Source: Methanobacteriota archaeon | Lineage (GTDB): Archaea; Halobacteriota; Bog-38; Methanoflorentales; Methanoflorentaceae | Assembly: GCA_963720465.1 (NCBI GenBank) | Contig: OY970393.1 | Location: 1,408,001 to 1,472,000 of the forward strand | Reading direction: 5' to 3' | Length of the DNA: 64,000 bases | Shown: one piece after another, positions 18,454-41,518 of the stretch | How positions within the stretch are numbered: position 1 is the first letter of the stretch | Layout of the letters: the number at the start of each line of letters is the position of its first letter | Made by a program: the position numbers and the translations under genes | The notes under the pieces: generated by a model | What the model was told of the DNA's origin: nothing | The model's input: only the letters and a program-made list of their open reading frames with translations | The model's database searches: none

Positions 18454-18621
18454 AACCGCACCAAAAGCGCACCAAAATGTAACCACCTTCTGCCTCTCGC
18501 AATCACGTTTAGTGGGCATCGGTTGAGTGCGAGGGGGCAACAGTCTTGCCTTTCTTACGCTCGACTCCTTATCAAGCATTGTTTATTATTAACATATTTT
18601 TATAAATTAATGTAAATTTTA
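18454..18621 (+). repeat. Left copy of inverted boundary module (11-bp-period repeat + AT-rich block)
   Basis: AACCGCACCAAAAGCGCACCAAAATGTAACCA (18454-18485) and AT block 18584-18621 match the reverse complement of 41414-41445 and 41296-41333. Confidence 0.8.
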
Positions 18622-19226
18622 ATATTGGTCGTCTGTCGAGGGGCGTTATGCAACGCGAGCACACCTGCGGCAACTCTCAGCGCACTCTGCTAGTGCGAAG
18701 TAGCTTTGAGGCACACAGGATGTGTTCGATGCGATACCGCGGATGTGTAACACTTTCGCGCTTCACAAAAGGTTGGTATGCTGTGCAGCTAATGGGAATA
18801 CGAAAGAAATTGAGCAGTGGTTCGAGAAACTCGACAGGCGCATCGTGTAAGCATGTGTAGCATCATTGACTTCCGGCAGCAGGGCCTAACACAAAGAGGC
18901 AACAATTCACTACGATGGAACACGTGGACTACGGAGCTCTCAAGCGCCATTTGCGACTCTCTGTCGAGAGTGGATGTCGCTGATCCTGGTGCCCACGCTG
19001 CACAGCCAACGCTGATCACGCCGTCATCAGGCGGACTATAAACGCTTGGCCTCTGCTCGCAGGAGCTAAAGAGGTATATGAACAACATTCGAACGTGCGT
19101 TCTCAGACTCGCATTCGTCGATAGCGACGCTGCATCCCGCATCGCCAAGGGGAATGCTGGATGTGACTTAATCTGGTGGCGCAAGGACGTGATGCACCCA
19201 CAGCGAAACAATGAGTGGGGTGTGCC

Positions 19227-19739
19227 ATGAAGGACATAGAGACGAAGCTTAAGTGCTTCAAACTGCGTGCGCAGGACAAATCACTTGCAACTATTGCGGC
19301 TACGGTCGGCGTGCGGAGACAGACGGTGGCGAATTGGCTCAACGAGCACCATGAGGAAGTCGAAAACCTGAAGGCGATGGAACTCGACGCTTTGCGCGAG
19401 GCCTGCTGGATGACGACGCAAGCGCGCATAGAGCGCCTGAGCGCGAGGCTCGAGAAGATCACGGTCGAGCTGGAAAAACGTGACTTTTCCGATCTCTCGA
19501 CGGAGAAGCTCCTGGAGCTGGAGCGGAAGACACGCACGGAGCTTGCCAAAGAGTTCCCTGAGCCCCGCATCCGCAGTGACATCCGCAGTGAGGAGGAGCT
19601 CCGCGACGCGAAGGCCACGAGAACGTCGCCCGATCTCCATCCATTCTCCCAACTGGCGCAGCAGGGGGGCGATACTACGCTGTTGCTTGAGCCCGAAGAA
19701 AGCGGCAATGGACGAAAACGGTCACGCCACGCTGATTAA
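19227..19739 (+). CDS. HTH-domain protein with coiled coil, of a type seen in mobile islands
   Basis: LRAQDKSLATIAATVGVRRQTVANW HTH; NLKAMELDALRE; ELEKRDFSDLSTEKLLEL. Confidence 0.75.
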   Translation: MKDIETKLKCFKLRAQDKSLATIAATVGVRRQTVANWLNEHHEEVENLKAMELDALREACWMTTQARIERLSARLEKITVELEKRDFSDLSTEKLLELERKTRTELAKEFPEPRIRSDIRSEEELRDAKATRTSPDLHPFSQLAQQGGDTTLLLEPEESGNGRKRSRHAD

Positions 19740-20347
19740 ACGAGGGGCCGCTATTACTAGTGCTTATTGTCGCGTGACTCTTGTACCTCGTAACACGAAG
19801 AGCGGGTGGCGAGTCGATGCTCGATTAGGCTCCTAGCAGATTCACCGCGTCAAGGCCCATTTAACTAGCTCAAAACGAGAACCCTCCTTGCGACAGTTAG
19901 CTGATTAGTCACTTTTAAAGTATTATTGGATCATTGCGGGATTGATTGTCCGAAAGCGTTGCCGTGCTGCGGCACTACCGGTTACCACAGGCTCACAGAA
20001 GTACCTTCTTTTTTTGACCGCGCGCGCTACTGAGTATTGAGCGCATAAGCGGGAGACTGGCGCGACCTGGTGCTCTCCGCTAGTATGCACTTGCAAACTG
20101 CTGCAAGCATCCTTCGATCGTGGCGTTCTGTCTAACGTTGTGTTTTCTGACTCGATATTCACTGCCTTTCCCACGGAAGGCATCGCATCGCGTAAGTAAC
20201 TGAAATTGTCTTTGTTAGTTAACTTTTAACGAATTGGACGATTTGACGCTACTGAACGGGGCAACGGACGAGCAAATCAGGCGTGACAAAAGAGGAGATC
20301 GCCAGTGCCTATGGACAACGAGATACGGCGAACAAGCGAGGCGATGG

Positions 20348-20800
20348 ATGGAGACCGTGGCTGTCATCATTCCGACGTTAAACGAGAAGCGCTCTATCGG
20401 CAAGGTTATCGACGGGGTGCCTGTTGCCGATCTCTTGCAGAGTGGGTTCGAGCTGCCGTGTACGTGATCGATGGGCAATCCACCGATAACACGAGGGAGA
20501 TCGCAGTCAAAAAGGGTGCCCAACTCATACTCGAAGAGCGGCAGGGAAAGGGTCAGGCAATTCAAACGGCGTTTAAGTCTATCAGTGCCGACTACGCGAT
20601 TATGGTTGACCGGGACGATACGTACCCGATCGAACTGGCGACGGAGATGACCCGCCTGCTGCAGACACACGATGTCGTCATCGAATCACGACTCAAGGGC
20701 ACCATTGAGCCGCGAGCCATGACGAGACTGAACGTCCTGGGGAACGCCATGCTTTGCTCTTCGCGCTGTTTGGTGTGCACATCAGCGACGTATGCACGGC
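20348..20800 (+). pseudogene. GT2 (dolichol-phosphate glycosyltransferase-like) pseudogene
   Basis: VIIPTLNE start, frameshift near 20450, DGDD changed to DRDD, GSR changed to ESR, homology to the neighbouring paralogs lost after about 20800. Confidence 0.85.
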
Positions 20801-20854
20801 GATATGCGCCTCCGGTGCTCTCCGCACGAGTCGCGGCATAAAACAAGAAATACA

Positions 20855-20961
20855 GTGTAACACTCGGGTGTCACACGCATTTATATACAGCGGAATAACG
20901 GGTCGTTCATAGGATTTACTGCAAGAAGGTGACAATATTGCAGCTGAGTGACAATATTGTC
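20855..20961 (+). promoter_or_regulatory. Promoter with flanking operator-like repeats upstream of GT2
   Basis: GTGTAACAC-TCGG-GTGTCACAC inverted repeat, TTTATATA box at 20880, then GTGACAATATTG twice (20929, 20948). Confidence 0.55.
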
Positions 20962-21060
20962 GTCTATCGACAATCGGCGATGTGCGAAGGGGGAGATATA
21001 AGCTTTCAGCAGGTCGTCGTACCGATGCTACGGATGATATCGAACGATGGAGACGAAGCG

Positions 21061-21843
21061 ATGGATACAGTAGCTGTCGTCATCCCGACGTTAAACGAGG
21101 AGCGCTCAATCGGCAAGGTCATCGACAGCGTGCCTATTGCCGACCTCTTGAACAACGGGCTCAAAACTGCCGTGTACGTAATCGACGGGCGATCGACTGA
21201 CGCCACGAGGGAGATCGCCGTCGAAAAGGGTGCCCAACTCATACTCGAAGAGCGGAAAGGGAAAGGTTCAGCCGTTCAAACGGCATTTAAGTCCATTAAC
21301 GCTGACTACGCGATTATGGTTGACGGGGACGACACGTACCCGATCGAACTGGCGACGGAGATGACCCGCCTGCTCAAGAAATACGACGTCGTCATCGGAT
21401 CGCGACTCAAGGGTACCATTGAGCCGGGAGCCATGACCATGCTAAACGTCGTGGGGAACAAACTCCTCACGCTCCTTGCTCGGCTGCTTTTCAATGTGCA
21501 GATTAGCGACGTCTGCAGTGGGCTATGGGGCTATCGAGGCCAAGCAATCAGAGGTTTAGAGCTCTCTGCTGAGGGGTTTGCAATTGAAGTAGACATGCTT
21601 GCCGAATGTACGCGCAACGGGTTTCATATAGCGGAAATCCCCATCAATTACCGTGCACGACGAGAAAATCCGGCCAAGCTGTCGTCTGTCAGAGACGGGT
21701 TGCGGATCGGTATGTTTTTGATTAAGAAATATTTGAGCCAGAAAAGAGCCCGAAACGTGCTGAACAGCATTTCTGCCAGCGGTTTCAAGAGGTTGCGCCG
21801 TTTGATGTTAGTGATTAGGCAACTGACGAAAAAAACGGCTTGA
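21061..21843 (+). CDS. GT2 family glycosyltransferase (DPM/AglJ-like)
   Basis: VVIPTLNEE, IDGRSTDAT, GKGSA, MVDGDDTYP, VIGSR, DVCSG, GFAIEVDM, EIPINYRAR; start 21061 or slightly upstream. Confidence 0.9.
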   Translation: MDTVAVVIPTLNEERSIGKVIDSVPIADLLNNGLKTAVYVIDGRSTDATREIAVEKGAQLILEERKGKGSAVQTAFKSINADYAIMVDGDDTYPIELATEMTRLLKKYDVVIGSRLKGTIEPGAMTMLNVVGNKLLTLLARLLFNVQISDVCSGLWGYRGQAIRGLELSAEGFAIEVDMLAECTRNGFHIAEIPINYRARRENPAKLSSVRDGLRIGMFLIKKYLSQKRARNVLNSISASGFKRLRRLMLVIRQLTKKTA

Positions 21844-22114
21844 TCAAGGGGGATAACTGAGGATAATAACACAAAAGTTGCAAACAGCAGCGGTTAACTT
21901 TTGGCATTTGTGGTATCATTGTTGATAAGAATTAAAATTATTAATAAATAATAACAACTTTTAAATACATTAACAATAGTTAAGTTGTGATACATTAGCG
22001 CGGCAAAATCTTCGCAGCTGTGGTCCGAATTCAAAGTGAAGATCGCACCGAGTTTGACGCTGCTAAACTGAGCAACCGACGAGCAAATCGGCTTGCTCAA
22101 AGGGGGAATCGCCG

Positions 22115-22915
22115 ATGCCACAGATGATATCGCTCGATCAGCGAACAGATGAGGCGACGGAAACAGTAGCGGTTGTCATTCCGACGTTAAACGAGGAATG
22201 CTCAATCGGCAAAGTCATTGATGACGTGCCTGTTGCCGACCTCTTAAAGAACGGGCTCAAAACTGCCGTGTACGTAATCGACGGGCGATCGACTGACGCC
22301 ACGAGGGAGATCGCCGTCGAAAAGGGTGCCCAACTCATACTCGAAGAGCGGAAAGGGAAAGGTTCAGCCGTTCAAACGGCATTTAAGTCCATTAACGCTG
22401 ACTACGTGATTATGGTCGACGGGGACGACACGTACCCGATTAACGTGGCTACGGAGATCGTCTGCCTCTTGCACACGCACGACGTCGTCGTCGGCTCACG
22501 ACTAAAGGGGAGGATTGATCCCGGGGCGATGACGCGGGTGAACATCGTCGGAAATACCCTCCTCACGCTGCTCGCCCGGCTGCTTTTTGACGCGAAGATC
22601 AGCGACGTCTGCACCGGCTTATGGGGCTTTCGACGCGACGCGATTCGGCGGCTCGAGCTCGCTGCACACGGCTTCGAACTTGAAGCTGACATGTTTGCGG
22701 AATGCGTGTTCAAAGGGTCCAGCATCGCGGAAATCCCGATCACCTACCGCGCAAGGCACGATCGCCCCAAGCTGGCTTCCCTAAGGGATGGCTTGAAGAT
22801 AGGCCTTTTTTTGTGCAAACGACGTTTGCGACCAAAAGAGCGCGGCGCACGATCAAGCGCGGAAGGCGCCGATACGGCGGATAGCGGACAGATGCGTGTG
22901 CTGCGCCGTGAGTGA
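22115..22915 (+). CDS. GT2 family glycosyltransferase (DPM/AglJ-like), paralog
   Basis: Same motif set as 21061-21843; GGGGG RBS. Confidence 0.9.
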   Translation: MPQMISLDQRTDEATETVAVVIPTLNEECSIGKVIDDVPVADLLKNGLKTAVYVIDGRSTDATREIAVEKGAQLILEERKGKGSAVQTAFKSINADYVIMVDGDDTYPINVATEIVCLLHTHDVVVGSRLKGRIDPGAMTRVNIVGNTLLTLLARLLFDAKISDVCTGLWGFRRDAIRRLELAAHGFELEADMFAECVFKGSSIAEIPITYRARHDRPKLASLRDGLKIGLFLCKRRLRPKERGARSSAEGADTADSGQMRVLRRE

Positions 22916-22916
22916 T

Positions 22917-24164
22917 ATGCGTCGCAGGACAGTTGGGATCGTTGGTGCGCGAGGCATAAACAATTATGGCGGGTATGAGCGAATGCTTGCAGATCTTGTA
23001 CCACGGCTCGTGCAGAAAGGGTACGCGGTTCGCTGCAGCTGTGAGAGACCCACAAACGGAGAGCTCGTCACTGACCACAAAGGGGCGAAACTCGATTACT
23101 TCGCGCTCAAACCCCCGTCCAACTACACCTTGCGAAAAGCGTTCGAGCTTCTTTACGATCTCTTTTTTATTCTCAAATATGCGGCGGTTTGTGATGTGGT
23201 TTACGTGCTCGGCATCTACGGCGGAGTCGCTCTGCTTTTTCCCAGACTGTTCGGGAAGCACGTTGTCGTCAACACCGACGGGCTAGAATGGGAGCGCGCT
23301 AAATACAACACAGTGGAACGAAGCATCATTGTGCTCTACTTTGCCGTTTCACTCAATCTCGCCTCGAAGATCATAATCGACAATGAAGGGCTCAGGCGGT
23401 TTATCAGCGCCCGACACCATTCCAAGATCTGTTACATTCCATACGGAGTTGCCTATCAGCAACCACGAGCATGGGACAAGGCCAAACTGGGCCAGTACAT
23501 CTCTGAGCAGCTCAACGACGGAGCCATAGAACCTAGCAAGTACTGGTTGTTGGTAGCGCGTCTGGAGCCTGAAAACAACATCGATCTGATCGTCCAAGGA
23601 TTCGTTGAAGCACACCCGCAGTACCCCTTATTGGTCGTTGGTGATTTCACGAGTCAGCGCTATAAGACCCAAGTCTATAGGGGGGCATCGAACGGCAGCT
23701 CGGCAAAGGTACACTTTTTGGGCGCGATCTACGATGCGGGAACCCTCAGCATGCTGCGCCAACACTGCCTTGCGTGCATACACGGCCACTCCGTTGGCGG
23801 CACCAATCCGAGTCTCTTGGAGGCAATGGCGTCACGCAATCTCATTATCGCCCACGAAAATCCTTTTAACAAGGAAGTGTGCGGCCCCTTTGCACATTAC
23901 TTCTCTAGTCGCGCTGATGTGAGCAACCTCGTCGCCTCAACTGAACAAAACGAAGACGACTCATCGCTGCTTCGCGGGAAAGCGTTCGAGCGAGCGGCGG
24001 CCTATTCGTGGAACAGCGTCGCTGATCAATATGACGTTTTCTTTGAGCAGCTATCGGAGAAGGACAGTGCGAGCCTGGCGAGCGGAGATAGACTGTTCAG
24101 CTGGGTTTTGAAGCACGTGGGAAAATGGGCGGACATGCCTTGCCTATGGATCGATGAGCTCTAA
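22917..24164 (+). CDS. GT4 glycosyltransferase with DUF1972-like N-terminus (rhamnosyltransferase-like)
   Basis: IVGARGINNYGGYE, NTDGLEWERAK, VARLEPENN, HGHSVGGTNPSLLEAMA. Confidence 0.88.
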   Translation: MRRRTVGIVGARGINNYGGYERMLADLVPRLVQKGYAVRCSCERPTNGELVTDHKGAKLDYFALKPPSNYTLRKAFELLYDLFFILKYAAVCDVVYVLGIYGGVALLFPRLFGKHVVVNTDGLEWERAKYNTVERSIIVLYFAVSLNLASKIIIDNEGLRRFISARHHSKICYIPYGVAYQQPRAWDKAKLGQYISEQLNDGAIEPSKYWLLVARLEPENNIDLIVQGFVEAHPQYPLLVVGDFTSQRYKTQVYRGASNGSSAKVHFLGAIYDAGTLSMLRQHCLACIHGHSVGGTNPSLLEAMASRNLIIAHENPFNKEVCGPFAHYFSSRADVSNLVASTEQNEDDSSLLRGKAFERAAAYSWNSVADQYDVFFEQLSEKDSASLASGDRLFSWVLKHVGKWADMPCLWIDEL

Positions 24165-24393
24165 CCCTCGCCCCAGATGAAGTAGACGTCCCCCTGAACG
24201 ATTCACACGTTTAGAAAAAATTCCAACCTCACCACACATGAGTTGCAGTAGCGAGTTCGTTTTGCGCGCAAGCACACGCTTATGCGACGAGATAGCGCCA
24301 CACGCTATGATCAAGCTTTGCTAAAAAAAAATCTCGAAGCAATACGTTGAAACAGGATGATACTTAAAGCTAAAAGATGAGCGGTGCGCCACA

Positions 24394-25521
24394 ATGAATA
24401 TTCTGTTGACAAACCCCATGGAGACTTTATCTGCTGGCGGAATCAACACGACGATAACGCAGCTCGCCACACGGTTTGTCGAAAAAGGTCACAAAGTAGC
24501 TGTGGTTCAAGGAAATCCTCTACAGCTCAAAAATGAGGAATTGAACTGCGGTTTTACGGTCATTCGTGTTAATTCTCCATTTAGCAGGTTTTTCCACCAA
24601 TTCAATCACAAAATGTACACTCAGTTGAAGCAGTGCTTGGCTCTTTTCGCGCCAGATGTCGTCAACATACATGGCTACGGCTCTTTGCTGTCCCCTGAAA
24701 TAGGGTTCCTTCTAAAGAAACTCATGCGCGTCACGACCCCCGTCGTATTTAATCCCCACTACGATCCTTTAAACCATAATACTTTTAGTGGCAAGCATTT
24801 TTCAAAAGTGTACGACGCCCTCGTCGGACCAAGCTTCTTTGAGATAACGGATCGCGTCATTTCGATCTCTAATTTCGAGGCAAACAACATCCAAAGAGTA
24901 TTTCACTGCCCCGTTCAGAAGATAACGGTGATACCTCACGGTGTAGACAGAATTGATGCTCGGAAACTATTACGCAGAAAAAGGATGGATACAATCGACA
25001 TCCTTTACGCTGGCTATCTCTTAGAGTACAAAGGAGTGCAGTATATTATTAGAGCCCTGCACGAACTGGTTCACAAAAGATCTCTAACCAACGTCAAGCT
25101 GACAATCATAGGCGACGGCGATTACCGGCCAAGGCTTGTAGCTCTTTCAAAAAACTTAGGAGTCTGTGACTTCATAGAATGGAAACCATTCATGCCACAC
25201 GATGAGCTACTAGCTGAACTAGAGCGTGCCGGTATGTTACTCTTGTTGTCTAAGACAGAGGGATATGGAATAATAATCGCCGAAGCCCTTTCAAGGGGGG
25301 TGCCAACAATTGTCACAAGAGGCACAGCCCTTGAAGAGTTCACAAATGAGCCAGGCTGCCTTGGTGTGGACTACCCCCCCGATCCAATGGAAGTTGCTGA
25401 ATTGATTCTGAGAATACACGAAGGCACGATCAACGTCGGACCTTTCAGCGACAAAATACGAACTTGGGACAAAGTTGCCGATGATTACTTGCGCGTGTAT
25501 AAAAACGTGCTAGAATACTGA
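24394..25521 (+). CDS. GT4 glycosyltransferase
   Basis: VIPHGVD, YKGVQ, EGYGIIIAEALSRGVP. Confidence 0.88.
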   Translation: MNILLTNPMETLSAGGINTTITQLATRFVEKGHKVAVVQGNPLQLKNEELNCGFTVIRVNSPFSRFFHQFNHKMYTQLKQCLALFAPDVVNIHGYGSLLSPEIGFLLKKLMRVTTPVVFNPHYDPLNHNTFSGKHFSKVYDALVGPSFFEITDRVISISNFEANNIQRVFHCPVQKITVIPHGVDRIDARKLLRRKRMDTIDILYAGYLLEYKGVQYIIRALHELVHKRSLTNVKLTIIGDGDYRPRLVALSKNLGVCDFIEWKPFMPHDELLAELERAGMLLLLSKTEGYGIIIAEALSRGVPTIVTRGTALEEFTNEPGCLGVDYPPDPMEVAELILRIHEGTINVGPFSDKIRTWDKVADDYLRVYKNVLEY

Positions 25522-25823
25522 TGAGCAATTTGTTTGGTCCTCGCAAAGATGATTCGATCACACGCGCTAGCACAAGTGATATGTTCTGCGGCTGCTTGCC
25601 CCCCAGTCGCTAAAAGCAAGAATTATCATGGCGGATTATTATGGCCGGACAAGGATAGACGGAGACGAAATAAGAAGTTACAGCAACTTTGCAATTCCAT
25701 GGGAAAACCGTTGCGCAAAGCATGCACGCATTGAGCTAAGTCAGAAATGATCGAGCGGTTTGGAATGCTGTCCGAAAAATCGGGTGCAATAGGAACGCAT
25801 ACTGGCGAATTAAGAAATCTGAC

Positions 25824-26793
25824 ATGATTTGTGAGATCTGCAGCAATTCGGACAAAAACGAGATACATCAAGTCAGAGATATGATGTTTGGGCTTGGGAG
25901 ACTCTTCACTTATCTTGAGTGCTCAGACTGTCGATCTCTTCAACTCGTTGATCCACCAAGAGACGTGAAGAATTTTTATCCCCCAGACTATTACTCATTT
26001 CGGAAAGTGAAACACCACGGGCATTCTAATTTTGCCAAAGTAGCTCTAGAAAAAAAAAGAGATCAGTACGCGCTTTTTAAGAAAGGTTTTACGGGGAGAT
26101 TAATTAAAGCAGTTGTTGCTGCGGACTCCATATGCAGTCTAATGGGCAATGCTCAAGTAAGACCAGACTCCAGGGTGCTTGACGTTGGATGCGGCGCTGG
26201 CGCGTTGCTTGATTTTCTACAGGATCGAGGATTTACCGATCTGACAGGTATTGATCCTTACGCACAAAAATACCTTGGCTCTGGGGTGAAAATACTAAAT
26301 AAAGCCATTGAAGATCTTGGAGACGATAAATTTGACGTGATCATATTTCGAGACTCTTTAGAGCATATACTTGATCAGTTCGCAGCTCTTCGAAAGACTT
26401 CAGCGTTACTGAACAAAAATGGAGTTTGTCTAGTTAGAATGCCTCTCAAAACGGAATATATTTGGGACCGTTACGGTACCAACTGGGTACAAATAGACGC
26501 CCCCCGTCATTGCGTGATTCATACTATCAAAAGCTTTGATTTGTTGCTAAAAAAAAACAGATTTGAGTATAGAAGATGTAATATTTGACTCAGAGATACT
26601 CCAATTCGTTGGGAGCGAACAATATTTGGAAAAGGTTCCACTTTTTTCAACAGAATCGTACTATGTGAATCCAACTAAGAGCATCTTTGATGCGAAGCAG
26701 ATTAGGAAGTTTAAAAAGCTTGCCAAGCAGTTGAATAGAACCGGAGAGGGAGATGAAGCGACATTTTGCTTAAAAAAGATCAGGACGGCCTAA
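25824..26793 (+). CDS. Class I SAM-dependent methyltransferase, split by a frameshift in an A9 tract
   Basis: CEIC...ECSDC N-terminus, VLDVGCGAG, SLEHI, DAPRH; the C-terminus (IEDVIFDSEILQFVGSEQY...GDEATF) continues in the 26563-26793 frame after A9 at 26549-26557. Confidence 0.85.
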
Positions 26794-26993
26794 TTTGATT
26801 ATCTTTTGTTGAGGATCTTATTTATGCACCACATAAAAAAGCAATGCCGCGCGCGATATCGACCTCCAAGCCATTTCAGCTCGGTAGCGAAGACAGCGTT
26901 GAATGTCGTTGTTCGTGGAGCACGATCGAGAATTGAAGCGAACATGAGCAAAGAATCTACGAATCTTGTGATGCAGTCGGGCCAATTAAAAGT

Positions 26994-28199
26994 GTGGAAA
27001 ATATGGATATTCTTTCAGTTTCGATTCTCGCTGGGCTAAATAGACCGATAAGTGGCGGGCAAGACAGATATTTTCACCTCGTTCAAGCACTGAAAAAACA
27101 CGGAAATCGCGTTATCGTCCTCGAACCCCAAGAGTTCCTCGACGCAAAAGACCCTGCTCTAGCAAAGATCTATACGCACCCCAATTACCGACTATTTCAC
27201 AGAGGCTGGAGCCTTTTTAAAGATTTAGATATCTGGTTCGTGCGCACGCTATTACTGATCCTGCAAAAAGAGCACGTAGACCTAATTACAATTGAATATT
27301 CCAGCGGAGCCGTGGCGGTGAAACTAGCGAGTGCACTTGCTGGAATTAACGTGCCTATCGTGTACACGCCGCAAAACGTTGACTCGAAGTTTGCTCGCGA
27401 CGTCATATCACAAGTCACAAAGTTCTCCCGACTTGAACGGAAAATAATCCCACCCTACATCGCCTTGTTAGAAAAAATTACGGCAAAATACGTTGCAAGT
27501 CATATTGTAGCGGTCAGTGAAGAAGATAAGGAATTTTTTCGCGGAAAATACAGCCTTGACAAAGAACGCTTAACCGTAGTTCCAAGCGGTTGCGAACTTC
27601 ACGATCTGCTTGATCACAAAGCAAAAAAGGGCATAAAAGCGCAAATGGGGTTCACTCCTAATTCCGTGATTGTCGTATTTCACGGGTCCTTCTTCCACCC
27701 CCCAAATCGAGAAGCAATCGACATAATCAGTAACGAAATAGCTCCAATGTTTGAAACTGACGAGTCAATCGTGTTTGCTCTATATGGAAACGGGGTTCCC
27801 AAATTTGAGCGAGCGAACCTACGGTCATTTGGTTTCGTTACGGACTTGCACGGCGCCATCTCCATAGCTGATATTGCAGTAGTACCTCTGAAAAGTGGCG
27901 GTGGCACAAAGCTAAAAGTCTTTGATTACATGAATGCAGGTCTGCCGATAATCACAACACGGAAGGGAATCGAAGGGATACGTGCCATCGATAATGAACA
28001 CGTGATCGTCGTCGACACTCTCGGTCAGATCATAGAAGCTATCCGCTGCCTAGCTGACAATCAATCGGAGCGCAAAAGGATTGGCTTGAATGCCCGTCGA
28101 CTCGTCGAGCGAGAGTATGAGTGGGAGCGAATTGGACGACAGCTAGATCAACTCTATAGAGAAATCAAAGACACTCACGACCAGGTACGCACAGCCTGA
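26994..28199 (+). CDS. GT4 glycosyltransferase
   Basis: VVPSG, FHGSFFHPPNREA, ADIAVVPLKSGGGTKLKVFDYMNAGLPIITT. Confidence 0.88.
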   Translation: MENMDILSVSILAGLNRPISGGQDRYFHLVQALKKHGNRVIVLEPQEFLDAKDPALAKIYTHPNYRLFHRGWSLFKDLDIWFVRTLLLILQKEHVDLITIEYSSGAVAVKLASALAGINVPIVYTPQNVDSKFARDVISQVTKFSRLERKIIPPYIALLEKITAKYVASHIVAVSEEDKEFFRGKYSLDKERLTVVPSGCELHDLLDHKAKKGIKAQMGFTPNSVIVVFHGSFFHPPNREAIDIISNEIAPMFETDESIVFALYGNGVPKFERANLRSFGFVTDLHGAISIADIAVVPLKSGGGTKLKVFDYMNAGLPIITTRKGIEGIRAIDNEHVIVVDTLGQIIEAIRCLADNQSERKRIGLNARRLVEREYEWERIGRQLDQLYREIKDTHDQVRTA

Positions 28200-28463
28200 A
28201 TTATCAAGCACCTTAAAGAAAATATACAGAAAGAAATCCGACTTCTGCAAAAGCAGGCTAAAAGAAGCTCGAGCGTCAAAGACACGACCACGAAGCATCG
28301 TACTTCGGCACGCCCTCGATGACGAAGAGCTGTCACTTCAGCGTCGATCACCGCACAACTTGCTTATGGTCGACTGTACCTGCCAGTTGAATTGAGGCCC
28401 ACATCAAGCCAAAATCGCAAGCAAGCGTTCAGTTAGAAATAGCCGCAATGAGGAAAAGTACAG

Positions 28464-30692: not shown

Positions 30693-31060
30693 CTTGAATT
30701 CAATTTTACAAGGCTCAGTACCGAGGAGCCTCCGCGAAATTGACAATTGGGGGTCAGCCCTGCAGATTCTCACATTTGATGTGCAGCCAGTCTGCGCCAG
30801 TTGTCTTCAGCGATCGATGAGCATGGCGAATAACGGACACCTTAAAGGGTTAGGGGAGACATATTTACGTGCACTTAGCTCCCATTATTGCATCAAGACT
30901 TGTGCTCTCCGCAACCCGAAAAACCCCACACAAGAAACCAATCAAATCAAATTGAGGCGAAATGCTAATGTTGAAATTTGTAAGATTATCTGTCTGCGCG
31001 TTCAAACCAACTTAGTCGAGACGCCAAGTGAGTCGAGAGCGCTCAGTTGACCGTTGCTCT

Positions 31061-32137
31061 ATGAACAAAACGATGAATGAAATGCGATGGCCCAAAGTTT
31101 TTATTATTATCCTTAACTGGAACGGCTGGAAAGACACAATAGAGTGCCTGGAATCGCTCTATGCTATTTCCTATCCCAACTACCAAGTTATCGTCGTAGA
31201 CAATAATTCACAGGATGATTCGCTTGCAAGAATAAACGCCTACGCCCGCGGTGAAATAGTGATCGAATCGTCTTTGTTCGCTCAGAGCAGTCGTCCACAA
31301 GGCTTGAAAGCTACGCAACTTGCCAGAGAACAAGCAGAATGCGTGTCCGTCTGCAGAGAAGAAGTAATGACAGAGCACGTGTCTCAAGCCCTTCAGAACG
31401 AGCAGCTATTGATTATTCAGAACGAGCAGAATTTTGGATATTCAGAGGGCAATAACATCGGTATGCGCTACGCGTTGAAAGCAGCTGCTGATTACATATT
31501 GCTGTTGAATAATGATACGGTAGTCCACGAAGATTTTCTTACAGAGCTCGTACGTGTCGCGGAAGAGGATGACAGCATTGGAGCTATAGGACCTAAGATA
31601 TGCTTTTACGACGCGCCTCAAGTCATCGAGTCGACGGGCGCTCGCATTAACTTCTGGACAGGCAGAGGGATTGCCCTCAATTGGGAGAAGGCGGACGATC
31701 TTCTTGATTCTTCAAGTGCCCAGAAGTTGTTGTCCGTTGATTACATCTCCGGCGCTTGTTTTCTGATACCCCGCAGAATAATTGAAGAGGTAGGCGGGCT
31801 TGACCCACTGTATTTCCTTTACGGAGAAGAGCTTGACTGGTGTATTCGAATCAGCAAAGCGGGCTATAGAATCACATGTGACCTAGACAGCAAGATCTGG
31901 CATAAAGGCATGGCATCAACTTCGAAGGACGCGCGATTCTCTCAGTACTACCTCGAAAGAAATCGAGTCATCTACATGAGAAAGTACGCAACGACGTTGC
32001 AGTTCATGTCGTTTTTGTTCTACTACCCGTTTTTTTATACTGCGCTTCTCCTAAAAAGGCGTCGAGCGCGCGACATTCCTTATTTTGTTAGGGGCTTCAT
32101 TGATGGCTTTGTCAAGGACATATCTAGCTCATCTTGA
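31061..32137 (+). CDS. GT2 glycosyltransferase
   Basis: IIILNWNGWKDTIECLES, VVDNNS, NFGYSEGNN, LLLNNDT, SGAC, YGEELDW. Confidence 0.9.
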   Translation: MNKTMNEMRWPKVFIIILNWNGWKDTIECLESLYAISYPNYQVIVVDNNSQDDSLARINAYARGEIVIESSLFAQSSRPQGLKATQLAREQAECVSVCREEVMTEHVSQALQNEQLLIIQNEQNFGYSEGNNIGMRYALKAAADYILLLNNDTVVHEDFLTELVRVAEEDDSIGAIGPKICFYDAPQVIESTGARINFWTGRGIALNWEKADDLLDSSSAQKLLSVDYISGACFLIPRRIIEEVGGLDPLYFLYGEELDWCIRISKAGYRITCDLDSKIWHKGMASTSKDARFSQYYLERNRVIYMRKYATTLQFMSFLFYYPFFYTALLLKRRRARDIPYFVRGFIDGFVKDISSSS

Positions 32138-32417: not shown

Positions 32418-33200
32418 TTATGCTCGGTCTAAAGTCATTTTCGCCAAGTCTCGCTTTTCTTTAAAAACTCGATCGAAGTAGCAAGTGATGAACATCGGCC
32501 ATTCGATCACTAATCTGAGAGCGCGACTTATTGGCTCTCCTTCTTGACGTCGCGCGTTGACAAATCGTTTATGCGTATACATAACGGAAAGGAGCCACAA
32601 TCGACTAATCTTCGTGTTTAAGAAACTCACGTCTGCGAATTTGAACCCATTCTCTTCACACAGACTTTTATAGGCATCAACTTGCCTAGTGGTGAAGCTT
32701 CCTTCTGCACTCAATTCTTTAGTCGTTCCTATCTCTTCCATGAGCACAATTTGAGTCTTGGTTACTCTGCATATTTCTTGCACGAGAGCGGTGAGCATTT
32801 CTTCGTCAGTGACATGCTGCAACACGGTAACCGTAAAGCTGATATCAATAGATTGATCTTCAAAAGGCAACTTTTTCCCGTTAATTCTGTAAAGTTCAAC
32901 TCCTTTGTATGCGGCGACATTTTGCGCGGCTATGTTAATCATTGTTTGTGAGATATCGACTCCTATCAGTGCTTGCGGTGCGCGACGTTCCGCTATATGC
33001 TTTAAATTGCCGCCGGGGCCGCAACCGACCTCCAACACGCGTGCATCGCGAAAATCGATTGTGTCCAAGAACGTCTGTAGAAATTTGTCCCTTCTGTAAC
33101 GGGAAACTGGATCATCATACCCAGCTACGTCGCACTGATCTCTTTTTTGGATCTCTTGTCCAACTTTAGACCAATACTGCTCAGGATCATACTCTACCAT
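32418..33200 (-). CDS. Class I SAM-dependent methyltransferase
   Basis: VLEVGCGPG, GVDIS, LPFEDQSID, TVLQHV. Confidence 0.85.
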   Translation of the reverse strand: MVEYDPEQYWSKVGQEIQKRDQCDVAGYDDPVSRYRRDKFLQTFLDTIDFRDARVLEVGCGPGGNLKHIAERRAPQALIGVDISQTMINIAAQNVAAYKGVELYRINGKKLPFEDQSIDISFTVTVLQHVTDEEMLTALVQEICRVTKTQIVLMEEIGTTKELSAEGSFTTRQVDAYKSLCEENGFKFADVSFLNTKISRLWLLSVMYTHKRFVNARRQEGEPISRALRLVIEWPMFITCYFDRVFKEKRDLAKMTLDRA

Positions 33201-33772
33201 CTCTCTGTCCTTATGAATTGCCAAGTTAGTCCTTCTCGCGCGCGATGAGTCAAACTCGATGAGTGCCGTTTTGAAGCTTATTACATTGCCCGCCTTTTAT
33301 ACCCTGTTGCGCCTATCTTATTGAATCGCATGTCTTTTCTACTTTTACTATAAGAAAGAGTTTTAGGACGGGTTAAAAATGAAATTGGACTTAGATCCGC
33401 GAAAGGCGGGGCCAAAAGCATCAAACACCTTCGAGATATCGAAGCGGAACGCATCCCACTGCATTGACGGAGGTCACGGGTTTTCAGGGAAGGTTATGCT
33501 CTTTGAGTACAAAGTGCGGATTACGAAAACCCCCCTAGGCTTTGGCAGCGGTTTTCATACAGACGCTTGCATCAAAAAATCGTGAGTCTGCTTCCTTGTC
33601 GAACGACTAAAGCACAACTCGTGGCTCGGCGCTCTAAAATGATCCTGTTTCAAATTGTCTCAAACGGCAGCCCGCAAGCCGACGTATCAGAAGTCCCGTC
33701 TTAGCCTCGAAATACGTACTTCATATGCGAGGACGCAGAATGCTAGGTGGCCAAGCGACGGGGGCAGACAGA

Positions 33773-35293: not shown

Positions 35294-35883
35294 CTCCTTG
35301 CGCATCCTTGTCATTTACGCCGCAGACAACCATCCCGACTGGTTTATGAAATAGCTAAGGCGGTAAAAAGCCGATGGGAGGCGCGGCTCCCATGCAGATC
35401 GCTGCTCTTATTGAAACAGCCAACATGATGATTCGTTTTCATCTGTCGCAAGGCACTTTAATTATCTAAGAAACTTTTACCGTGCACAATGACTTTTTTA
35501 AGCTTTAGGTTTTTCGCCGCTGTGCGACGCCAGGCTATGCTCGATGCGGTGTACCGCGGAGCCTGCGATGGAAAGAGCTTGCTAATGCGCAGTCGGCTAT
35601 CCGCTGTCGAAGGGTCTCGACGCGCCTCAACGCGATTTTGTTCTCTGAGGTCGCGGCCGCACTCCAACAATAGTCTTGTGCTCTCTTTCGCAATAGAGCC
35701 TATAGTGATCGAGGGCGGGCGTCAATCTTCGCCTTTACAGCTCGTGCGCAGTCAGCGCGAGAAACGGCCCTTCGGCGAGATCAGAGAGGAATCTATTTCG
35801 GAAGGTTTTTGAACTCTTCTGTCAGTAACGGTAGTCTGGAGCCTAAGGGCTGTTTGCAGGACCGAGCTGACGCACTTCCATCG

Positions 35884-37917
35884 ATGGCCGGCATTTCCAC
35901 AATGAGCAGGATAGTTCTCGCGCTTGCGCTGATTATCATCATTGCGTTCAGCTCAGTCGCTGGCACGTTTTGTTTTGCGGTGCGGGACACTGGAGCGAAA
36001 GGAGCGGTGCCAACTGTCAGTGAGGCTGACACGTCGCTTGTCCAGGCAAGCAGCCTGAAGTTCAAAGGGTTCTCGTACGTCTCGTTCGCACCAAACGAAC
36101 TCGCTTCAGCCGGTTCCAACTCGTCGCTGAACGCTCTGAAGAGCACAGGAGCCAATTACGTCTCCGTGATCGTCACCCAGTTTGTCTCTTCGCCCACATC
36201 AGCCGTTATTTTTCCTGATTCCCGATGGACCCCGACTGACGCTGCCGTGATCGATGCCATCAGAGACGCCCACGCGCGCGGGATGGGCGTCCTTCTCAAA
36301 CCGCAATTGGGTTGCGAAAACTTATCGTACAGTGCGGGCAATCTAGCCCCTACGCAGCCGGCCGCGTGGTTTGCGAATTATACGACGTTTATCGACCACT
36401 ATGCGCGAATCGCCCAAAACAACGGCGTGGAGCTGTTCTGCGTGGGCTGCGAATTGCACCAGCTTGACACGAGCACGTACTATGCGAACTGGCGCACCGT
36501 GATAAGCGGGGTGCGAGCAATCTACCACGGGCCGCTCACCTACGCGGCCGACAACCTCGGGTACGCGCAGGTCCCCTTCTGGGGGTTGCTCGACTACGCG
36601 GGAATCGACGCGTACTTCCCTCTGAGCAACGCGACAACGCCTTCCGTGGCTGACCTTGTTGGCGGGTGGTCTCATTATGTCGATTCCGACGGAACGCACA
36701 ACTGGACCAATGACATCGAGACGTGGCAAGTGACCGTGCACAAACCGGTGATTTTCACCGAGATCGGATACCGGAGCATCGACTACGCCGCGCAGGATCC
36801 CGGAAATTGGGCTATAACGGGAGTGTACAATGGAAATGCGCAGGCCAACTGCTATGCTGCAGCCTTGCAGGTATTTGCCAACAAGCCGTGGTTTGTGGGG
36901 ATGTTCTGGTGGGATTGGTTGCCCAATCCAAATGCAGGAGGTGCCGGCAATACCGACTACACCCCGCAATATAAGCCCGCCCAGGACGTCTTAACCTCGT
37001 ATTGGAATCCGAACCTCACCGCTACCGCGCTCACCCTCACCGCGTCCACCGCCACTCCCGTCGTCAACCAGTCAGTCACCTTCAACGCCACGTTGAGCAG
37101 CGGTGGAACGCCCCTCTCAGGAGAAAACGCCACCATCTACCACTACCTCAACAACGTCCGCTACAACGACACCACCAACGTCACCAACTCCACCGGCCAG
37201 GTCACGGTCACCACGAGCTTTGGCTCTCCCGGTACACGCACCTACTACGCCACCTTCGCTGGCGACAGCTCCTATCAGAATTCGACAAGCACCGTCGTCA
37301 CCGTTAACGTCACCAAGATGCCGACCGCTCTCACCCTCACCGCGTCCAACTCCACCCCCATCGTCAATCAGCAGGTCACCTTCAACGCCACCTTGAGGAG
37401 TGGTGGAACGCCTCTCCCAGGAGAAAACGTCACCATCTACCACTACCTCAACAACGTCCGCTACAACGACACCACCAACGTCACCAACTCCACCGGCCAG
37501 ATCAGCCTCACCACGAGCTGGGCCTCCACCGGAAACCGCACCTACTACGCCACCTTCGTCGGTGACAGCTCCTATCAGAACTCGACGAGCCCAGTCGTGA
37601 CGATCACCGTCACCGTCGGACAGACGCAGATCACCCTCACCGCGTCGAACACCACCCCCGCGGTCAACCAACCCGTCACCTTCACCGCCACCCTCACGAA
37701 CGGCACAACGCCCCTCTCAGGAAAGATCATCACCATCTATCACTACCTCAACAGCGTCCGCTACAACGACACCACCACCACCACCAACTCCACCGGCCAG
37801 GTTACCGACACTACGAGTTGGGGCTCCGCCGGAAACCGCTCCTACTACGCCACGTTCGCCGGTGACAGCTCCTATCTAACATCGACGAGCACGGTCTTGA
37901 CAATCACCGTTCAGTAG
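35884..37917 (+). CDS. Secreted GH113-like (TIM-barrel) glycoside hydrolase with three C-terminal Ig-like repeats
   Basis: Signal/TM segment; VLLKPQL, FCVGCEL, LTYAAD, GIDAYFPLS, VIFTEIGYRS, GMFWWDW, KPAQ; start uncertain. Confidence 0.82.
   Translation: MAGISTMSRIVLALALIIIIAFSSVAGTFCFAVRDTGAKGAVPTVSEADTSLVQASSLKFKGFSYVSFAPNELASAGSNSSLNALKSTGANYVSVIVTQFVSSPTSAVIFPDSRWTPTDAAVIDAIRDAHARGMGVLLKPQLGCENLSYSAGNLAPTQPAAWFANYTTFIDHYARIAQNNGVELFCVGCELHQLDTSTYYANWRTVISGVRAIYHGPLTYAADNLGYAQVPFWGLLDYAGIDAYFPLSNATTPSVADLVGGWSHYVDSDGTHNWTNDIETWQVTVHKPVIFTEIGYRSIDYAAQDPGNWAITGVYNGNAQANCYAAALQVFANKPWFVGMFWWDWLPNPNAGGAGNTDYTPQYKPAQDVLTSYWNPNLTATALTLTASTATPVVNQSVTFNATLSSGGTPLSGENATIYHYLNNVRYNDTTNVTNSTGQVTVTTSFGSPGTRTYYATFAGDSSYQNSTSTVVTVNVTKMPTALTLTASNSTPIVNQQVTFNATLRSGGTPLPGENVTIYHYLNNVRYNDTTNVTNSTGQISLTTSWASTGNRTYYATFVGDSSYQNSTSPVVTITVTVGQTQITLTASNTTPAVNQPVTFTATLTNGTTPLSGKIITIYHYLNSVRYNDTTTTTNSTGQVTDTTSWGSAGNRSYYATFAGDSSYLTSTSTVLTITVQ
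37024..37914 (+). repeat. Three 300-bp coding repeats (Ig-like domains)
   Basis: Units start at 37024, 37324, 37624: TLTAS...VNQ.VTF.ATL...TIYHYLN.VRYNDTT...YYATF.GDSSY. Confidence 0.92.
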
Positions 37918-38816: not shown

Positions 38817-40268
38817 GTGAGTGACTACGAGCTTTTGGTCAAACGAATCGGGCTGACAGGACTGGCCAGCGTTGTGGTCCAGTTCAGTCCTGTTCTCTTG
38901 CTGCCGATCCTGACGAAGATCCTGACCATTCAGGATTACGGGATCTGGTCGTTAATCGTCGTTACAGCGGGCTTTGTGCCAATGGTGGTGACGTTAGGCC
39001 TACCGAGTTCCATGGTACGGTTTCTAGCTCCGGTAAAAAACAACGATGAGATACGCGAAGGGTACTACTCTATCACTCTCGCTGTTCTCGGTGCCGGCTT
39101 TGTTGTGAGTTTAGTTCTCCTCGTGTTTGCGCAATCGATCGCTACAAATTTGTTCGGCAATAATCTTAACGTTGCCCTCTTACTTCCATTAATCACGTTT
39201 GCGGCCTCTTACATTGCTGTGCCACAGACTTATTTCAGGACATTTCAACAGGCGAAACGATATACGATTGTCTCATTTCTTCAGGCTGCTCTCTACGTTA
39301 TACTCGTCGCAGCGTTCGTCGTGTTTGGTCTCGGACTCGTCGGGGCTGCTTTCGCGTATCTCATCAGCTTGGTGCTCATAGCCCTGATCTCGACCTTTTA
39401 CGTCCTGAGAGATATCGGGGTGACCATACCGAGTTTCGCTGAGCTAAAGGCGTATTTAAAATACGGCCTACCTTTTGTGCCCGGCAACGTCTCGAGTTGG
39501 GCGTTAGGTGTAAGCGATCGGTACATCATTACGTTCTTCTTGGGTGTCGCTTGGGTTGGTTACTACTCTCCAGGGTACCAGCTTGGTTGGATGATAACTG
39601 TCTTAGCGATGCCCTTTACGATCCTAGCTCCGACGGCCATCTACGAGTATTATGACGCAAACCACATAGCGGAGGTGAAGACGATTATCAGGTACTCCAT
39701 AAAATACTTCCTCGCAGTTGCCGTGCCCGCAGCTTTCGTGCTTTCAGTTCTGTCGAAGCCCATACTGCTGGTACTAACTACCCCAGCAATAGCTGCGAAC
39801 GGCTATCTGATCACGCCGTTTACCGCGTTTAGCTCTCTGCTGTTTGGAGTGTGGTCCATAATCATGATCGTGCTCACCTTTGAAAAAAGGACGGCGATCA
39901 TCGGCATGATGTGGATCCTAGGTGCGGTATTAAACATCGGCCTTAATCTGATCCTCGTTCCATATTTTGGAATCATAGCTGCGGCCCTGACGACGGTGCT
40001 GGGCTACGGCTTTGTTTTCGGGGTTACCGCGATTTATTCTGTTCGACACATGACGCTCGATGTAGATTTTGGGTTCATTTTAAAAAGTATTTTTGCATCG
40101 GTCGTGGTATCGTCGTTTGTTCTGGTATGGCACGCCTCCGGATTGTTGAGCGTCTCAGCCCTGATCGTGATCTGCGCCGCCGCCTACACCGCGATCCTGT
40201 TTGTCCTCAAAGGATTTACGGCAAGCGAAATACGATTCTTCAGCGGTTTTCTCGCGAGAGAGAGATGA
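38817..40268 (+). CDS. Wzx/AglR-type oligosaccharide flippase
   Basis: 483 aa MOP-like membrane protein; YGIWS, YLKYGLP, SDRYII, VGYYS, LNLILVPYFGIIAAALTT. Confidence 0.9.
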   Translation: MSDYELLVKRIGLTGLASVVVQFSPVLLLPILTKILTIQDYGIWSLIVVTAGFVPMVVTLGLPSSMVRFLAPVKNNDEIREGYYSITLAVLGAGFVVSLVLLVFAQSIATNLFGNNLNVALLLPLITFAASYIAVPQTYFRTFQQAKRYTIVSFLQAALYVILVAAFVVFGLGLVGAAFAYLISLVLIALISTFYVLRDIGVTIPSFAELKAYLKYGLPFVPGNVSSWALGVSDRYIITFFLGVAWVGYYSPGYQLGWMITVLAMPFTILAPTAIYEYYDANHIAEVKTIIRYSIKYFLAVAVPAAFVLSVLSKPILLVLTTPAIAANGYLITPFTAFSSLLFGVWSIIMIVLTFEKRTAIIGMMWILGAVLNIGLNLILVPYFGIIAAALTTVLGYGFVFGVTAIYSVRHMTLDVDFGFILKSIFASVVVSSFVLVWHASGLLSVSALIVICAAAYTAILFVLKGFTASEIRFFSGFLARER

Positions 40269-40301
40269 TGCGTGTAAAAATTATTTAGAGCGAAAACGTG
40301 G

Positions 40302-40523
40302 TCAAGCTGTCAGTAGCTCTAGGCGCTTTCGTTTCGAGATCAAAAAGGCCTCACGCAACGCGTCAAGTTCCATCGCCTTGAGGTTAGCGACCTATTCCTC
40401 GCAATCAATGAGCCAGTTCGCTATTGTTTGTCGTCGTATGCCGACGAGCTCTGCGATCGCGTTTAGTGAATTACCATGCGCACGAAGCTCTATAACCCTC
40501 AGTTTCGTATCTAAGTTGTTCAT
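40302..40523 (-). pseudogene. Truncated paralog of the HTH gene at 19227, with internal TAG
   Basis: MNNLDTKLRVIELRAHGNSLNAIAELVGIRRQTIANWLIDCEE*VANLKAMELDALREAFLISKRKRLELLTA*. Confidence 0.82.
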
Positions 40524-41295
40524 GGAGCACCTCGTGCGCGCCTGTGGAGCGTGCTCGCAAAATGCGCCCTTACAAAAGAGCACGCAGCGCCGGGCCCCAC
40601 GCTCTCAATGCCGCGCTGCGACTCATTGGCTCGCGCGACGCGTTCCTTCTTGATTTCTTCATTTCTAACACTCCTCAATCTTCTGTTTCTAATTGCCTCG
40701 CGGCATCGGCCGACTTGTCGACCGTATTTTTCGAGCAGCGTACGAGTCGGGCGCAAACTGGTGCGGCGAGTTATGCTCTCCGCTTTCCAGCTCTTTCGAT
40801 TTATGCACAACCATTTCGCTTTTTACTGCTCTTATTTGAAGCGAATTGCGCCAAAAAGCGCATTCAGTGCTCAAATCGTATTTGGCGAGCGTATTTCGCT
40901 CCTAAAAATAAGATGAATGTCTCAACGATAAACTTTTAGGTAGCATGCTAAAGATTGCTATGGTTATGCAGCGCGCGTGCGCCAGCCGGGGGTCTGCAAA
41001 GCACAAATAACCTCTCTACTGTTTAACGATCCTCACGGAATGTAATTTAATCTATAAAAATCTTTTAATAAAAAATTGGAAATGCAAAGCGAGCTCCAAT
41101 GGCGCTCGTGCGAATGAGATCACAAAGACTGACATAGAAGGCATCAAACAGAGAATCGGCAAAATAGTCGATTCGTGCACAGGGTGGTCAACGGCGTGCT
41201 TAGAACAGGCCCCGCAGTGAGGTCTATTCACTCTGAAAGGCTCGGTCAGCGCGTTAACAGTCATTTCTGAAAGGGTCACTTAGCTCGCAAATGAG

Positions 41296-41445
41296 TAAGA
41301 TTTAGAATTAATTATAAAAATAACTCAATAATATGAAAAAGTGAGGCACGGGGTGAAAGGAACGAAGAACGAGATCACTTCCTTGTGGGTGCGCCCCACG
41401 TGAAAATGAAACCTGGTTAACTTTTGGTGCGGTTTTGGTGCGGTT
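41296..41445 (-). repeat. Right copy of inverted boundary module
   Basis: Reverse complement reads AACCGCACCAAAACCGCACCAAAAGTTAACCA, then TATTATTGAGTTATTTTTATAATTAATTCTAAATCTTA. Confidence 0.8.
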
Positions 41446-41518
41446 CTTATGCCTGGTCGTCCCCGGTCAGGTGATGCACAGCATCAAATGCACGCGATTG
41501 AACTGGTGCCTACACGGG

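Follow-up and report, generated by a model that had tools for sequence, protein, structure and literature searches.

Repeat, AT-block and helix-turn-helix units at the edges of a glycosylation island and of other variable regions in a peat methanogen genome

A 64,000-nucleotide stretch of the archaeal contig OY970393.1 (positions 1,408,001 to 1,472,000; assembly GCA_963720465.1; hereafter the window) contains a 23-kb segment rich in surface-glycan genes, each end of which carries an inward-facing module composed of short repeats with an 11-bp period, an AT-rich block and a gene for a helix-turn-helix (HTH) protein. The segment is a true strain-variable glycosylation island at a hot spot of rearrangement, with the NrdD-glutaredoxin genes on one side and the DJ-1 gene on the other. 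Judging from sequence comparisons, its two edges are best seen as diverged copies of a border unit that is specific to the genus, each copy evolving independently. Beyond what the initial annotation of this DNA had described, the modules recur at borders of variable DNA and face into that DNA. Our best, although tentative, reading is that they are independent units of a protein and its site behind which DNA is exchanged, by a mechanism that we infer.

The left repeat array consists of two 11-bp units (NNGCACCAAAA) and a degenerate third (positions 18454 to 18485 of the window, forward strand), and the right array occupies 41414 to 41445 on the reverse strand. As initially annotated, the left array matched the reverse complement of the right one at 29 of 32 positions, and the AT-rich blocks (18584-18621 versus 41296-41333) matched at 30 of 38. 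The pattern CGCACCAAAANCGCACCAAAA, with up to two mismatches, occurred twice in the window (18457-18477, forward; 41422-41442, reverse) and in none of 100 dinucleotide-preserving shuffles. The arrays sit ~105 bp and ~73 bp inward of the BLAST-defined edges of the island (18340 to 41518; by-eye inspection may extend these limits to ~18370 and ~41465). On the forward strand, the left AT block (18568 to 18634), which has a TATA-like core (TTTATAAAT) and then a conserved GTCGTCTGTCGAGGGGC, is followed by a conserved non-coding leader with short hairpin-like blocks (18635 to 19077, from an alignment of nine clade copies), an open reading frame (ORF) of 50 amino acids (19078 to 19230) and the intact, inward-facing HTH/coiled-coil gene (19227 to 19739; 170 amino acids), whose start codon overlaps the stop of the small ORF (ATGA). 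The small ORF gave no PHROG match and no family match, and its frame is preserved in a paralog with a 3-nt indel. At the right end, on the reverse strand, the AT block (41289 to 41345) is joined by a second, inner one (41037 to 41084) that was absent from the initial annotation. The HTH gene there (40302 to 40523) is truncated and carries an in-frame stop, as had been annotated; it also faces inward, and its product is 55% identical to the intact one over 73 residues (tblastn; one TGA and one TAG).

The same layout recurs in the 2.31-Mb genome (one contig, GC 51.7%): two to five phased 11-bp A-tract repeats ending in CAAAA, a spacer of 75-135 bp and an AT block of 50-80 bp, followed by a conserved leader, the 50-amino-acid ORF and the HTH/coiled-coil gene. 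The tandem motif was found at only four loci, and the HTH family had seven genes (tblastn, and a hidden Markov model run against 15,529 open frames). Looser inspection gave ~10 array-plus-AT modules, several of them without an HTH gene; modules J, K and M (genome positions 1526668, 1913013 and 553464) were viewed only. Stretches with at least 87.5% AT over 40 bp numbered 42 in the genome, and an AT block lay 450-820 bp upstream of five of the seven HTH genes. Near AT blocks, in neighbourhoods making up 1.6% of the genome, we found 5 of the 39 exact 8-mers repeated at a lag of 11, compared with 0/25, 0/105, 0/35, 1/133, 1/34 and 1/33 at control lags of 8, 9, 10, 12, 13 and 14. The left unit aligned at 73-81% identity with a unit at genome 1231440-1229384, within another glycan region and with a GT2 gene directly upstream; the homology starts exactly at the array and spans the AT block, the leader, the 50-amino-acid ORF and the HTH gene into GT2 genes. 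Two independent copies of a dispersed ~1-kb HTH module, which the initial annotation had offered as its alternative, fit the data better than its preferred single element.

Alignment of nine copies of the B/A clade (named after modules B and A) defined the conserved blocks of the unit. These copies have two to four array units, and five were present in G008:C6 and at locus D of G010 (G numbers denote related genomes). The AT block has an invariant ATTATT..TATTTTTATAAATT, followed by a conserved GTCGTTTGTCGGGGC and hairpin-like leader blocks, and several copies have a short GC-rich inverted repeat with a T5-T7 run between array and AT block. The 50-amino-acid ORF, with ATG and a Shine-Dalgarno-like GGAG, was present in eight of the nine. 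Elsewhere in the family, a shared stem, AGCAGGCCGC...GCGGCCTGCT, lies ~120-170 nt upstream of HTH genes E and G (genome ~1636430-1636480 and 1269500-1269550) and is followed by a TATA-like TTTATATA. In several metagenome-assembled genomes (MAGs) the array is at most ~1.3 kb from a contig start, and in one record it is partly masked by N (these cases are L007:5173-5215; G003:C97:84, G002:C79:950, G012:C36:1135 and G008:C6:1285); the arrays probably break short-read assemblies.

For each of six further modules, a surrounding stretch of 16-17 kb was compared with five relatives (G011, G008, G006, G010 and G001). In seven of the eight modules assessed (B and C, which are the left and right ends of the 23-kb island, and D, H, E, A and I; not F), conserved DNA lies behind the repeats and non-syntenic DNA beyond the AT block, so that the repeats point toward the core and the AT block toward variable DNA. 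Module D (forward) was kept with its conserved flank in G010 and G011, where synteny stops at the end of the AT block, and module H (reverse) was kept with the opposite flank. These two modules bracket, in inverted and inward-facing orientation, a second island of 31 kb (L002:9674-9800 to L006:10830-10995; genome ~2065.7-2097.0 kb) that contains orphan ORFs (ORFans), an HD-domain gene, CRISPR-Cas genes (Cas8/TM1802 and Cas7), an HTH gene and a Rad50/Mre11/HerA/NurA-type cluster with no DNA-level match in the five relatives. The island is absent from G010, in which modules D and H stand back to back with ~30 bp between their AT blocks; their arrays are unlike in sequence. At module E, G011 has kept the flank, the array and the AT block and has no HTH gene there. 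Divergence begins ~55 bp past the AT block in C versus G009, 0 bp in D versus G010 and ~20 bp in E versus G011. At modules A and I, likewise, the DNA behind the array is conserved and the DNA ahead of it is not syntenic. Only module F departs from this pattern: the F gene and its array form part of a 1.5-kb segment within an otherwise syntenic stretch, and homologs of this segment occur at other loci in G011 (inside its NrdD-DJ-1 island), G008 and G001. As a separate observation, the variable DNA ahead of D and E (L002:10976-14150 and L003:11344-12615) holds small ORFan families with 9-21 DNA-level copies each in the host genome and dozens in relatives.

In our best reading such units would act as follows. 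The HTH protein would bind its own phased repeat array, whose sites all fall on the same side of the helix; the AT block may be a promoter, an easily opened stretch, or both, pointing into the variable DNA; and the DNA just behind the AT block would be the preferred place for the gain, loss and swap of foreign blocks. If exchange occurs there, each unit would remain on the conserved flank and face inward, and two units would thus bracket an island in inverted orientation. The arrangement resembles an integron at loci C, D and E, where an oriented cis-element is fixed on the flank with variable DNA directly behind it. Unlike an integron, it has no adjacent integrase and no attC-like cassette ends, its cargo is large and multigenic, and its breakpoints are not at one position; no repeated cassette-end element was found in the 23-kb island, whose self-similarity shows gene paralogs only.

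The locus of the 23-kb island was compared by searching 17 genomes of the same genus for NrdD and DJ-1. Nine carry both on one contig; in four others the flanks are on separate contigs, and in another four one or both flanks were not found. In the host genome the gap between the two genes is 24.9 kb, and homology of the flanks in relatives stops at window positions 18243-18349 and restarts at 41518-41520. Four of the nine (G017, G012, G001 and G014) have an empty site with a gap of 1.14-1.85 kb, without a repeat array or an AT block; the flank homologies meet within ~90-150 bp in G014, G001 and G012, and ~335 bp is unmatched in G017. Against these four sites no target-site duplication of at least 5 bp was seen by eye, with ambiguous junction alignments. 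G009, with a gap of 3.66 kb, has the right module only, followed by a terminase large-subunit fragment, and is 94% identical to the host from DJ-1 through the array and AT block to window position 41234. Other islands, of 12, 13.7, 47.7 and 62.5 kb in G010, G008, G011 and G006, differ in content, holding glycan genes and also TIR, HEAT and MoxR-type genes. In G006 the island is found across the glutaredoxin gene, on its opposite side. In G010 a left-type module stands between glutaredoxin and the ORF upstream of it, together with a partial duplicate of the glutaredoxin 5' region. The left and right units therefore differ in history, since G009 has only the right one and G010 a left-type one past glutaredoxin. 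No integrase was found among the 72 ORFs of the G009, G010, G008 and G011 islands, a count that leaves out the 53 ORFs of the G006 island. The initial annotation had asked whether glutaredoxin adjoins DJ-1 in some relatives and whether the cargo differs in others, and both proved to be so; neither full synteny across the boundaries nor a lack of any link between modules and variable cargo, which would have spoken against it, was seen.

In these respects the locus is like the flexible surface-glycan islands of aquatic prokaryotes, of which PMC4033161 gives an account in the portion drawn on here: a glycan cluster lies between conserved genes, its content varies and its central GC is lower (49.8% for the island and 44-46% in its middle, compared with flank values of 55.1%, left, and 51.8%, right). 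The replacement islands described there have conserved flanks and differing content, as here; in contrast, four of the nine sites here are empty, so that the variation is also additive, the limits shift by a gene, and some islands carry the non-glycan TIR, HEAT and MoxR genes. The specific repeat/AT-block/HTH unit at the edges also sets these islands apart, being unmentioned in that portion of the paper.

The initial annotation had explained the two ends as those of a single composite element, mobilisable or invertible, with the HTH protein binding the ends and a recombinase supplied in trans. The inverted, near-terminal arrays, the existence of empty sites, the second island bracketed in the same way and the tyrosine recombinase genes elsewhere in the genome (10 PF00589 matches, several of them fragments) are in keeping with this idea, and the layout is like a composite transposon in having two homologous inverted modules around cargo and an HTH protein that weakly resembles IS3/IS630 N-termini. 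However, the island bounded by B and C occurs in none of the nine relatives with both flanks on one contig and at no other place, only single units being found elsewhere, and the modules remain with the flank when the cargo changes. The ends have different histories and only 55% identity in their HTH proteins, the limits of the island vary among genomes, and the arrays of D and H differ. Unlike a composite transposon, the segment also has no catalytic domain, no terminal inverted repeat at an exact boundary, no second whole copy and no visible target duplication. We therefore regard the composite element as very unlikely.

The HTH gene was detected in 14 of the 17 same-genus genomes and in none of 13 genomes outside the genus; the motif was found in 12 of the 17 and again in none of the 13, and a reversed control pattern in none. 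For 34 HTH genes (seven from the host genome and 27 from relatives), an upstream array-plus-AT module was present in 19 by a strict test and in two more by eye, one with a mismatch in the array and one masked by N. The repeat unit was GCACCAAAA in the B/A clade, [A/C]GCCAAAA in all six genes of the E clade and GTAACAAAA in three of the four genes of the H clade, and two divergent HTH genes had TTAACCAAAA and ACACCAAAA. By sequence, the type of repeat unit is constant within an HTH clade and differs between clades, with exceptions. Because repeat type follows HTH clade, the initial annotation's proposal that the HTH protein is linked to the repeats is plausible.

Metatranscriptome contigs from four runs of two studies, ~95% identical to the window, covered 18824-20047 with a summed word depth of ~80-260. 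Depth was 3-32 at the flank, array and AT block and ~0 beyond 20172, in the GT2 genes. The abundant contigs start at 18824-18866, inside the leader; assembled contigs are of a kind that cannot reliably map RNA ends or strand. The HTH gene and ~400 nt of its leader are well represented in the RNA libraries. In three runs, contigs over 18207-18701 depart from the window at 18701, which may reflect a small replaced segment in a related strain and was not counted as a breakpoint.

These data bear on the main rival, a strong one even though we hold it to be somewhat unlikely: the units would be ordinary autoregulated transcription-factor genes with operator repeats and an AT-rich archaeal promoter, heading acquired blocks, and their border position would be a by-product without any role in the exchange of DNA. 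Regulator-first units are common as cargo that heads acquired gene blocks. Direct repeats upstream of a TATA-like AT block and an HTH gene form the classic layout of a regulator, the AT block of G014 is only 171 bp upstream of the HTH start, HTH mRNA is abundant in situ, an HTH gene precedes glycosyltransferase genes in L008, L009 and L010 of relatives, and no recombinase is linked to any unit. The Bacteroides capsule loci, in which UpxY/UpxZ regulators lie behind invertible promoters, are comparable in having paralogous small regulators, one per surface-polysaccharide locus, at the 5' edge and with a long leader; unlike them, the present units encode another protein family, show no invertase or promoter inversion, and also border non-glycan islands (CRISPR-Cas and repair genes). 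A role as mere regulators leaves unexplained, however, why variable DNA lies ahead of seven of the eight modules and the core behind, why some modules persist on the flank with no HTH gene beside them (D, I, E in G011 and C in G009), and why a back-to-back pair occurs in G010; moreover, the downstream glycosyltransferase genes are outside the cover of the HTH RNA contigs.

The T-rich outward strand allows another explanation, to which we give very little credence: a transcriptional insulator, in which outward-strand T4-T5 tracts would stop transcripts leaving the island, the T-run behind the inverted repeat would stop those entering, and the AT block would restart transcription. Islands insulated in this way would disturb the core less and so be retained. 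The array when reversed reads as repeated TTTTGGTGCG, T5-T7 runs lie behind the GC-rich inverted repeat in several aligned copies, and a polar function would match the orientation rule. On the other hand, the non-T part of the unit is constant inside each HTH clade and varies from one clade to another, which points to protein recognition; RNA contigs of low depth continue across both array and AT block, and T4 tracts are weak archaeal terminators.

An AlphaFold model of the HTH protein (mean predicted local distance difference test score 73.5) combines an HTH of three helices with a helix of 43 residues, additional helices and a basic tail that is disordered, and the protein contains no catalytic domain. 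Matches in Pfam (HTH_23, E 8.8e-5, below the cut-off), PHROGs and NCBIfam were all sub-threshold and confined to the HTH; the NCBIfam match to IS3 reached 19 bits against a cut-off of 160 and covered the N-terminal part only. A profile search of the PDB with the protein gave a best E of 0.053, and Foldseek searches of PDB and BFVD with the model had no hit with an E as low as 0.001. The weak look-alikes include Tfx and, as DNA-binding parts of mobile-DNA machines, IS3/IS630 N-termini, small terminases and Terminase_5/phBC6A51-type HTH proteins; we treat these similarities as leads only. Among catalytic families, rve (PF00665), DDE_Tnp_1 (PF01609) and Resolvase (PF00239) had no Pfam match in the genome, a further point against a composite element, and all ten PF00589 matches lay outside the window, in agreement with the initial annotation. 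With no tRNA gene (by tRNA scan) or PF00589 match in the window, and with inverted rather than direct repeats, the island is also unlike one borne by an integrase. Elsewhere, three AT blocks at genome 2257811-2259677 adjoin two tyrosine-recombinase matches (2258402-2258746 and 2259032-2259502), and this region may be an integrated element of low GC. Sites of the nucleoid protein MC1, whose preferred consensus is given as AAAAACACAC(A/C)CCC(C/A) in the part of PMC3928310 drawn on here, were considered for the repeats and rejected: PF05854 is absent from the genome, and the control genomes Haloferax and Methanosarcina match.

Another candidate reading is a relic of a packaging site (pac) or origin (ori), in which the HTH protein would be small-terminase-like or iteron-binding, the repeats and AT block pac- or ori-like, and inward packaging or replication would aid transfer of the island, as in lateral transduction. 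A small HTH/coiled-coil protein and phased direct repeats beside an AT stretch are indeed features of small terminases with their pac sites and of iteron proteins with AT-rich origins, and the polar orientation into the island agrees with them. The genome encodes three full-length terminase large subunits (L070:1596-3852; genome 189885-191816 and 1995502-1997361), one of them preceded by a small-terminase gene (phrog_4102, E 3.4e-10), and the terminase fragment of G009 directly follows the right module. Unlike those systems, however, membership of the family is unsupported here: PHROG small-terminase matches of the HTH protein had E values of 0.003-0.02 (best 0.0031), and hhalign against the genome's own small terminase gave a probability of 2.8%. 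None of the seven HTH genes adjoins any of the three large-terminase genes, and no Rep-like Pfam family was present among 95 ORFs around six other loci or 25 ORFs of the window. We consider this reading highly improbable. Independently of the units, no capsid or portal match was found among seven ORFs downstream of terminase, and two terminase copies share an upstream element, a T-run/ATAAAAAAA and then GTCGGGTTTATATA.

Several observations weigh against our reading of the units as borders behind which DNA is exchanged. The data show how the unit is built, its dispersal and confinement to the genus, the matching of repeat type to HTH clade, empty and occupied sites, the placing and orientation at borders and the expression of the HTH gene; binding of the repeats by the protein, promoter activity of the AT block and a causal role in DNA exchange are all matters that we infer. 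The same five relatives, mutually kin, serve six of the eight modules in the border test, and G010 is a 78%-complete MAG, in which the back-to-back junction could be an assembly join. The four empty NrdD-DJ-1 sites have no modules, so that the units there arrived with the island and did not form a fixed landing pad, and breakpoints lie at no fixed offset, with no target duplication seen. The pairing of HTH genes with repeats is imperfect: no upstream module was found in the F clade (0/5; the three copies inspected have a TTGACCAAAA array and AT block on the downstream side) or the G clade (0/4), one B/A-clade HTH gene in G010 lacks a module, and a B-type repeat accompanies a gene only 47% identical to E, its nearest paralog in the host genome. 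Orthologs share arrays by descent, which leaves only ~6 independent pairings of HTH gene and repeat. No catalytic recombinase was found linked to any unit. Finally, the depth of the RNA contigs makes no jump at the AT block, and it is ~200 bp further in that RNA becomes abundant, so the AT block can only be proposed as the promoter of the HTH gene.

A bolder version, which we consider doubtful, is that the unit is an archaeal "landing pad": the protein on its phased sites would mark an AT-rich entry point for foreign blocks, with neither integrase nor transposase linked to it. Blocks such as glycan, CRISPR-Cas and repair genes would then be captured and swapped directly behind the entry point. 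Two back-to-back pads, as in G010, would be an empty docking site, and filling it would give an island bracketed by inverted units.

The gene content of the 23-kb island and its surroundings was assigned by a Pfam scan of 25 ORFs between 14 and 47.5 kb of the window. Inside the bracket it identified seven glycosyltransferases, two methyltransferases, a DUF2206 membrane protein, a GH113/Ig-domain protein and a Polysacc_synt flippase. A forward-strand run of glycosyltransferase, methyltransferase and DUF2206 genes extends from 20305 to 32137. It begins with a GT2-like ORF (20305-20841), so called for DNA similarity to 22053-22614 only, and includes GT2 genes (20929-21843, 22115-22915 and 31028-32137), GT1/4 genes (22896-24164, 24394-25521 and 26994-28199), a methyltransferase (25824-26588) and the DUF2206 gene (28464-30692). 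A second methyltransferase (32418 to 33224, reverse strand) is followed on the forward strand by a GH113 glycoside hydrolase with Ig-like repeats (35809 to 37917) and the polysaccharide flippase (38817 to 40268). The ~300-bp repeats that encode the Ig-like domain of the GH113 protein (37024-37910) have many copies in the genome at 70-89% identity (for example at 1.16-1.18 Mb and 1.53 Mb). An Rfam scan of 17500-42500 gave no match with E up to 1.

The conserved flanks are glutaredoxin on the left (17927 to 18202, reverse strand; PF00462, syntenic within the genus) and DJ-1/PfpI on the right (41595 to 42047, reverse strand; Pfam and synteny). The initial description of a glycan interior with non-glycan genes outside holds for these two genes, which lie just outside; it does not hold beyond DJ-1, where another flippase gene (42257-43546) is present, as is a gene for GT2 (43674-44390). 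This flippase (42247-43574) has a paralog 89% identical at genome 1899612-1898285, and the GT2 gene (43684-44398) one 91% identical at genome 1144115-1144829, close similarities that suggest recent duplication or exchange of glycan genes. Near the HTH loci, methanogen-type genes (FilR1, MEDS and F420 oxidoreductase) are present, and the closest sequence records are metagenome-assembled archaea from peat and bog.

Among titles and opening lines of abstracts on Methanoflorens, genomic islands, archaeal glycosylation or hypervariable islands and inverted repeats, none describes the unit, although it may still have been published. Surface-glycan islands are thought to govern susceptibility to viruses and the coexistence of strains, and to our knowledge their exchange in archaea is mostly unexplained. 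The present lineage comprises abundant peat methanogens, in which three common families of transposases and resolvases have no match and integrase genes or their relics are only scattered. An oriented unit of protein and site at the junctions of core and variable DNA makes the gain and loss of islands open to concrete tests. Should the units be regulators only, they would still represent a new genus-specific family of island-head regulators with recognisable operator arrays and high expression in situ; if the landing-pad reading were true, the unit would serve whole islands as an integron-like platform, in an archaeal lineage poor in insertion sequences. Since the unit stands at the edges of other variable regions as well as this island, it may show how peat methanogens gain and swap gene blocks.

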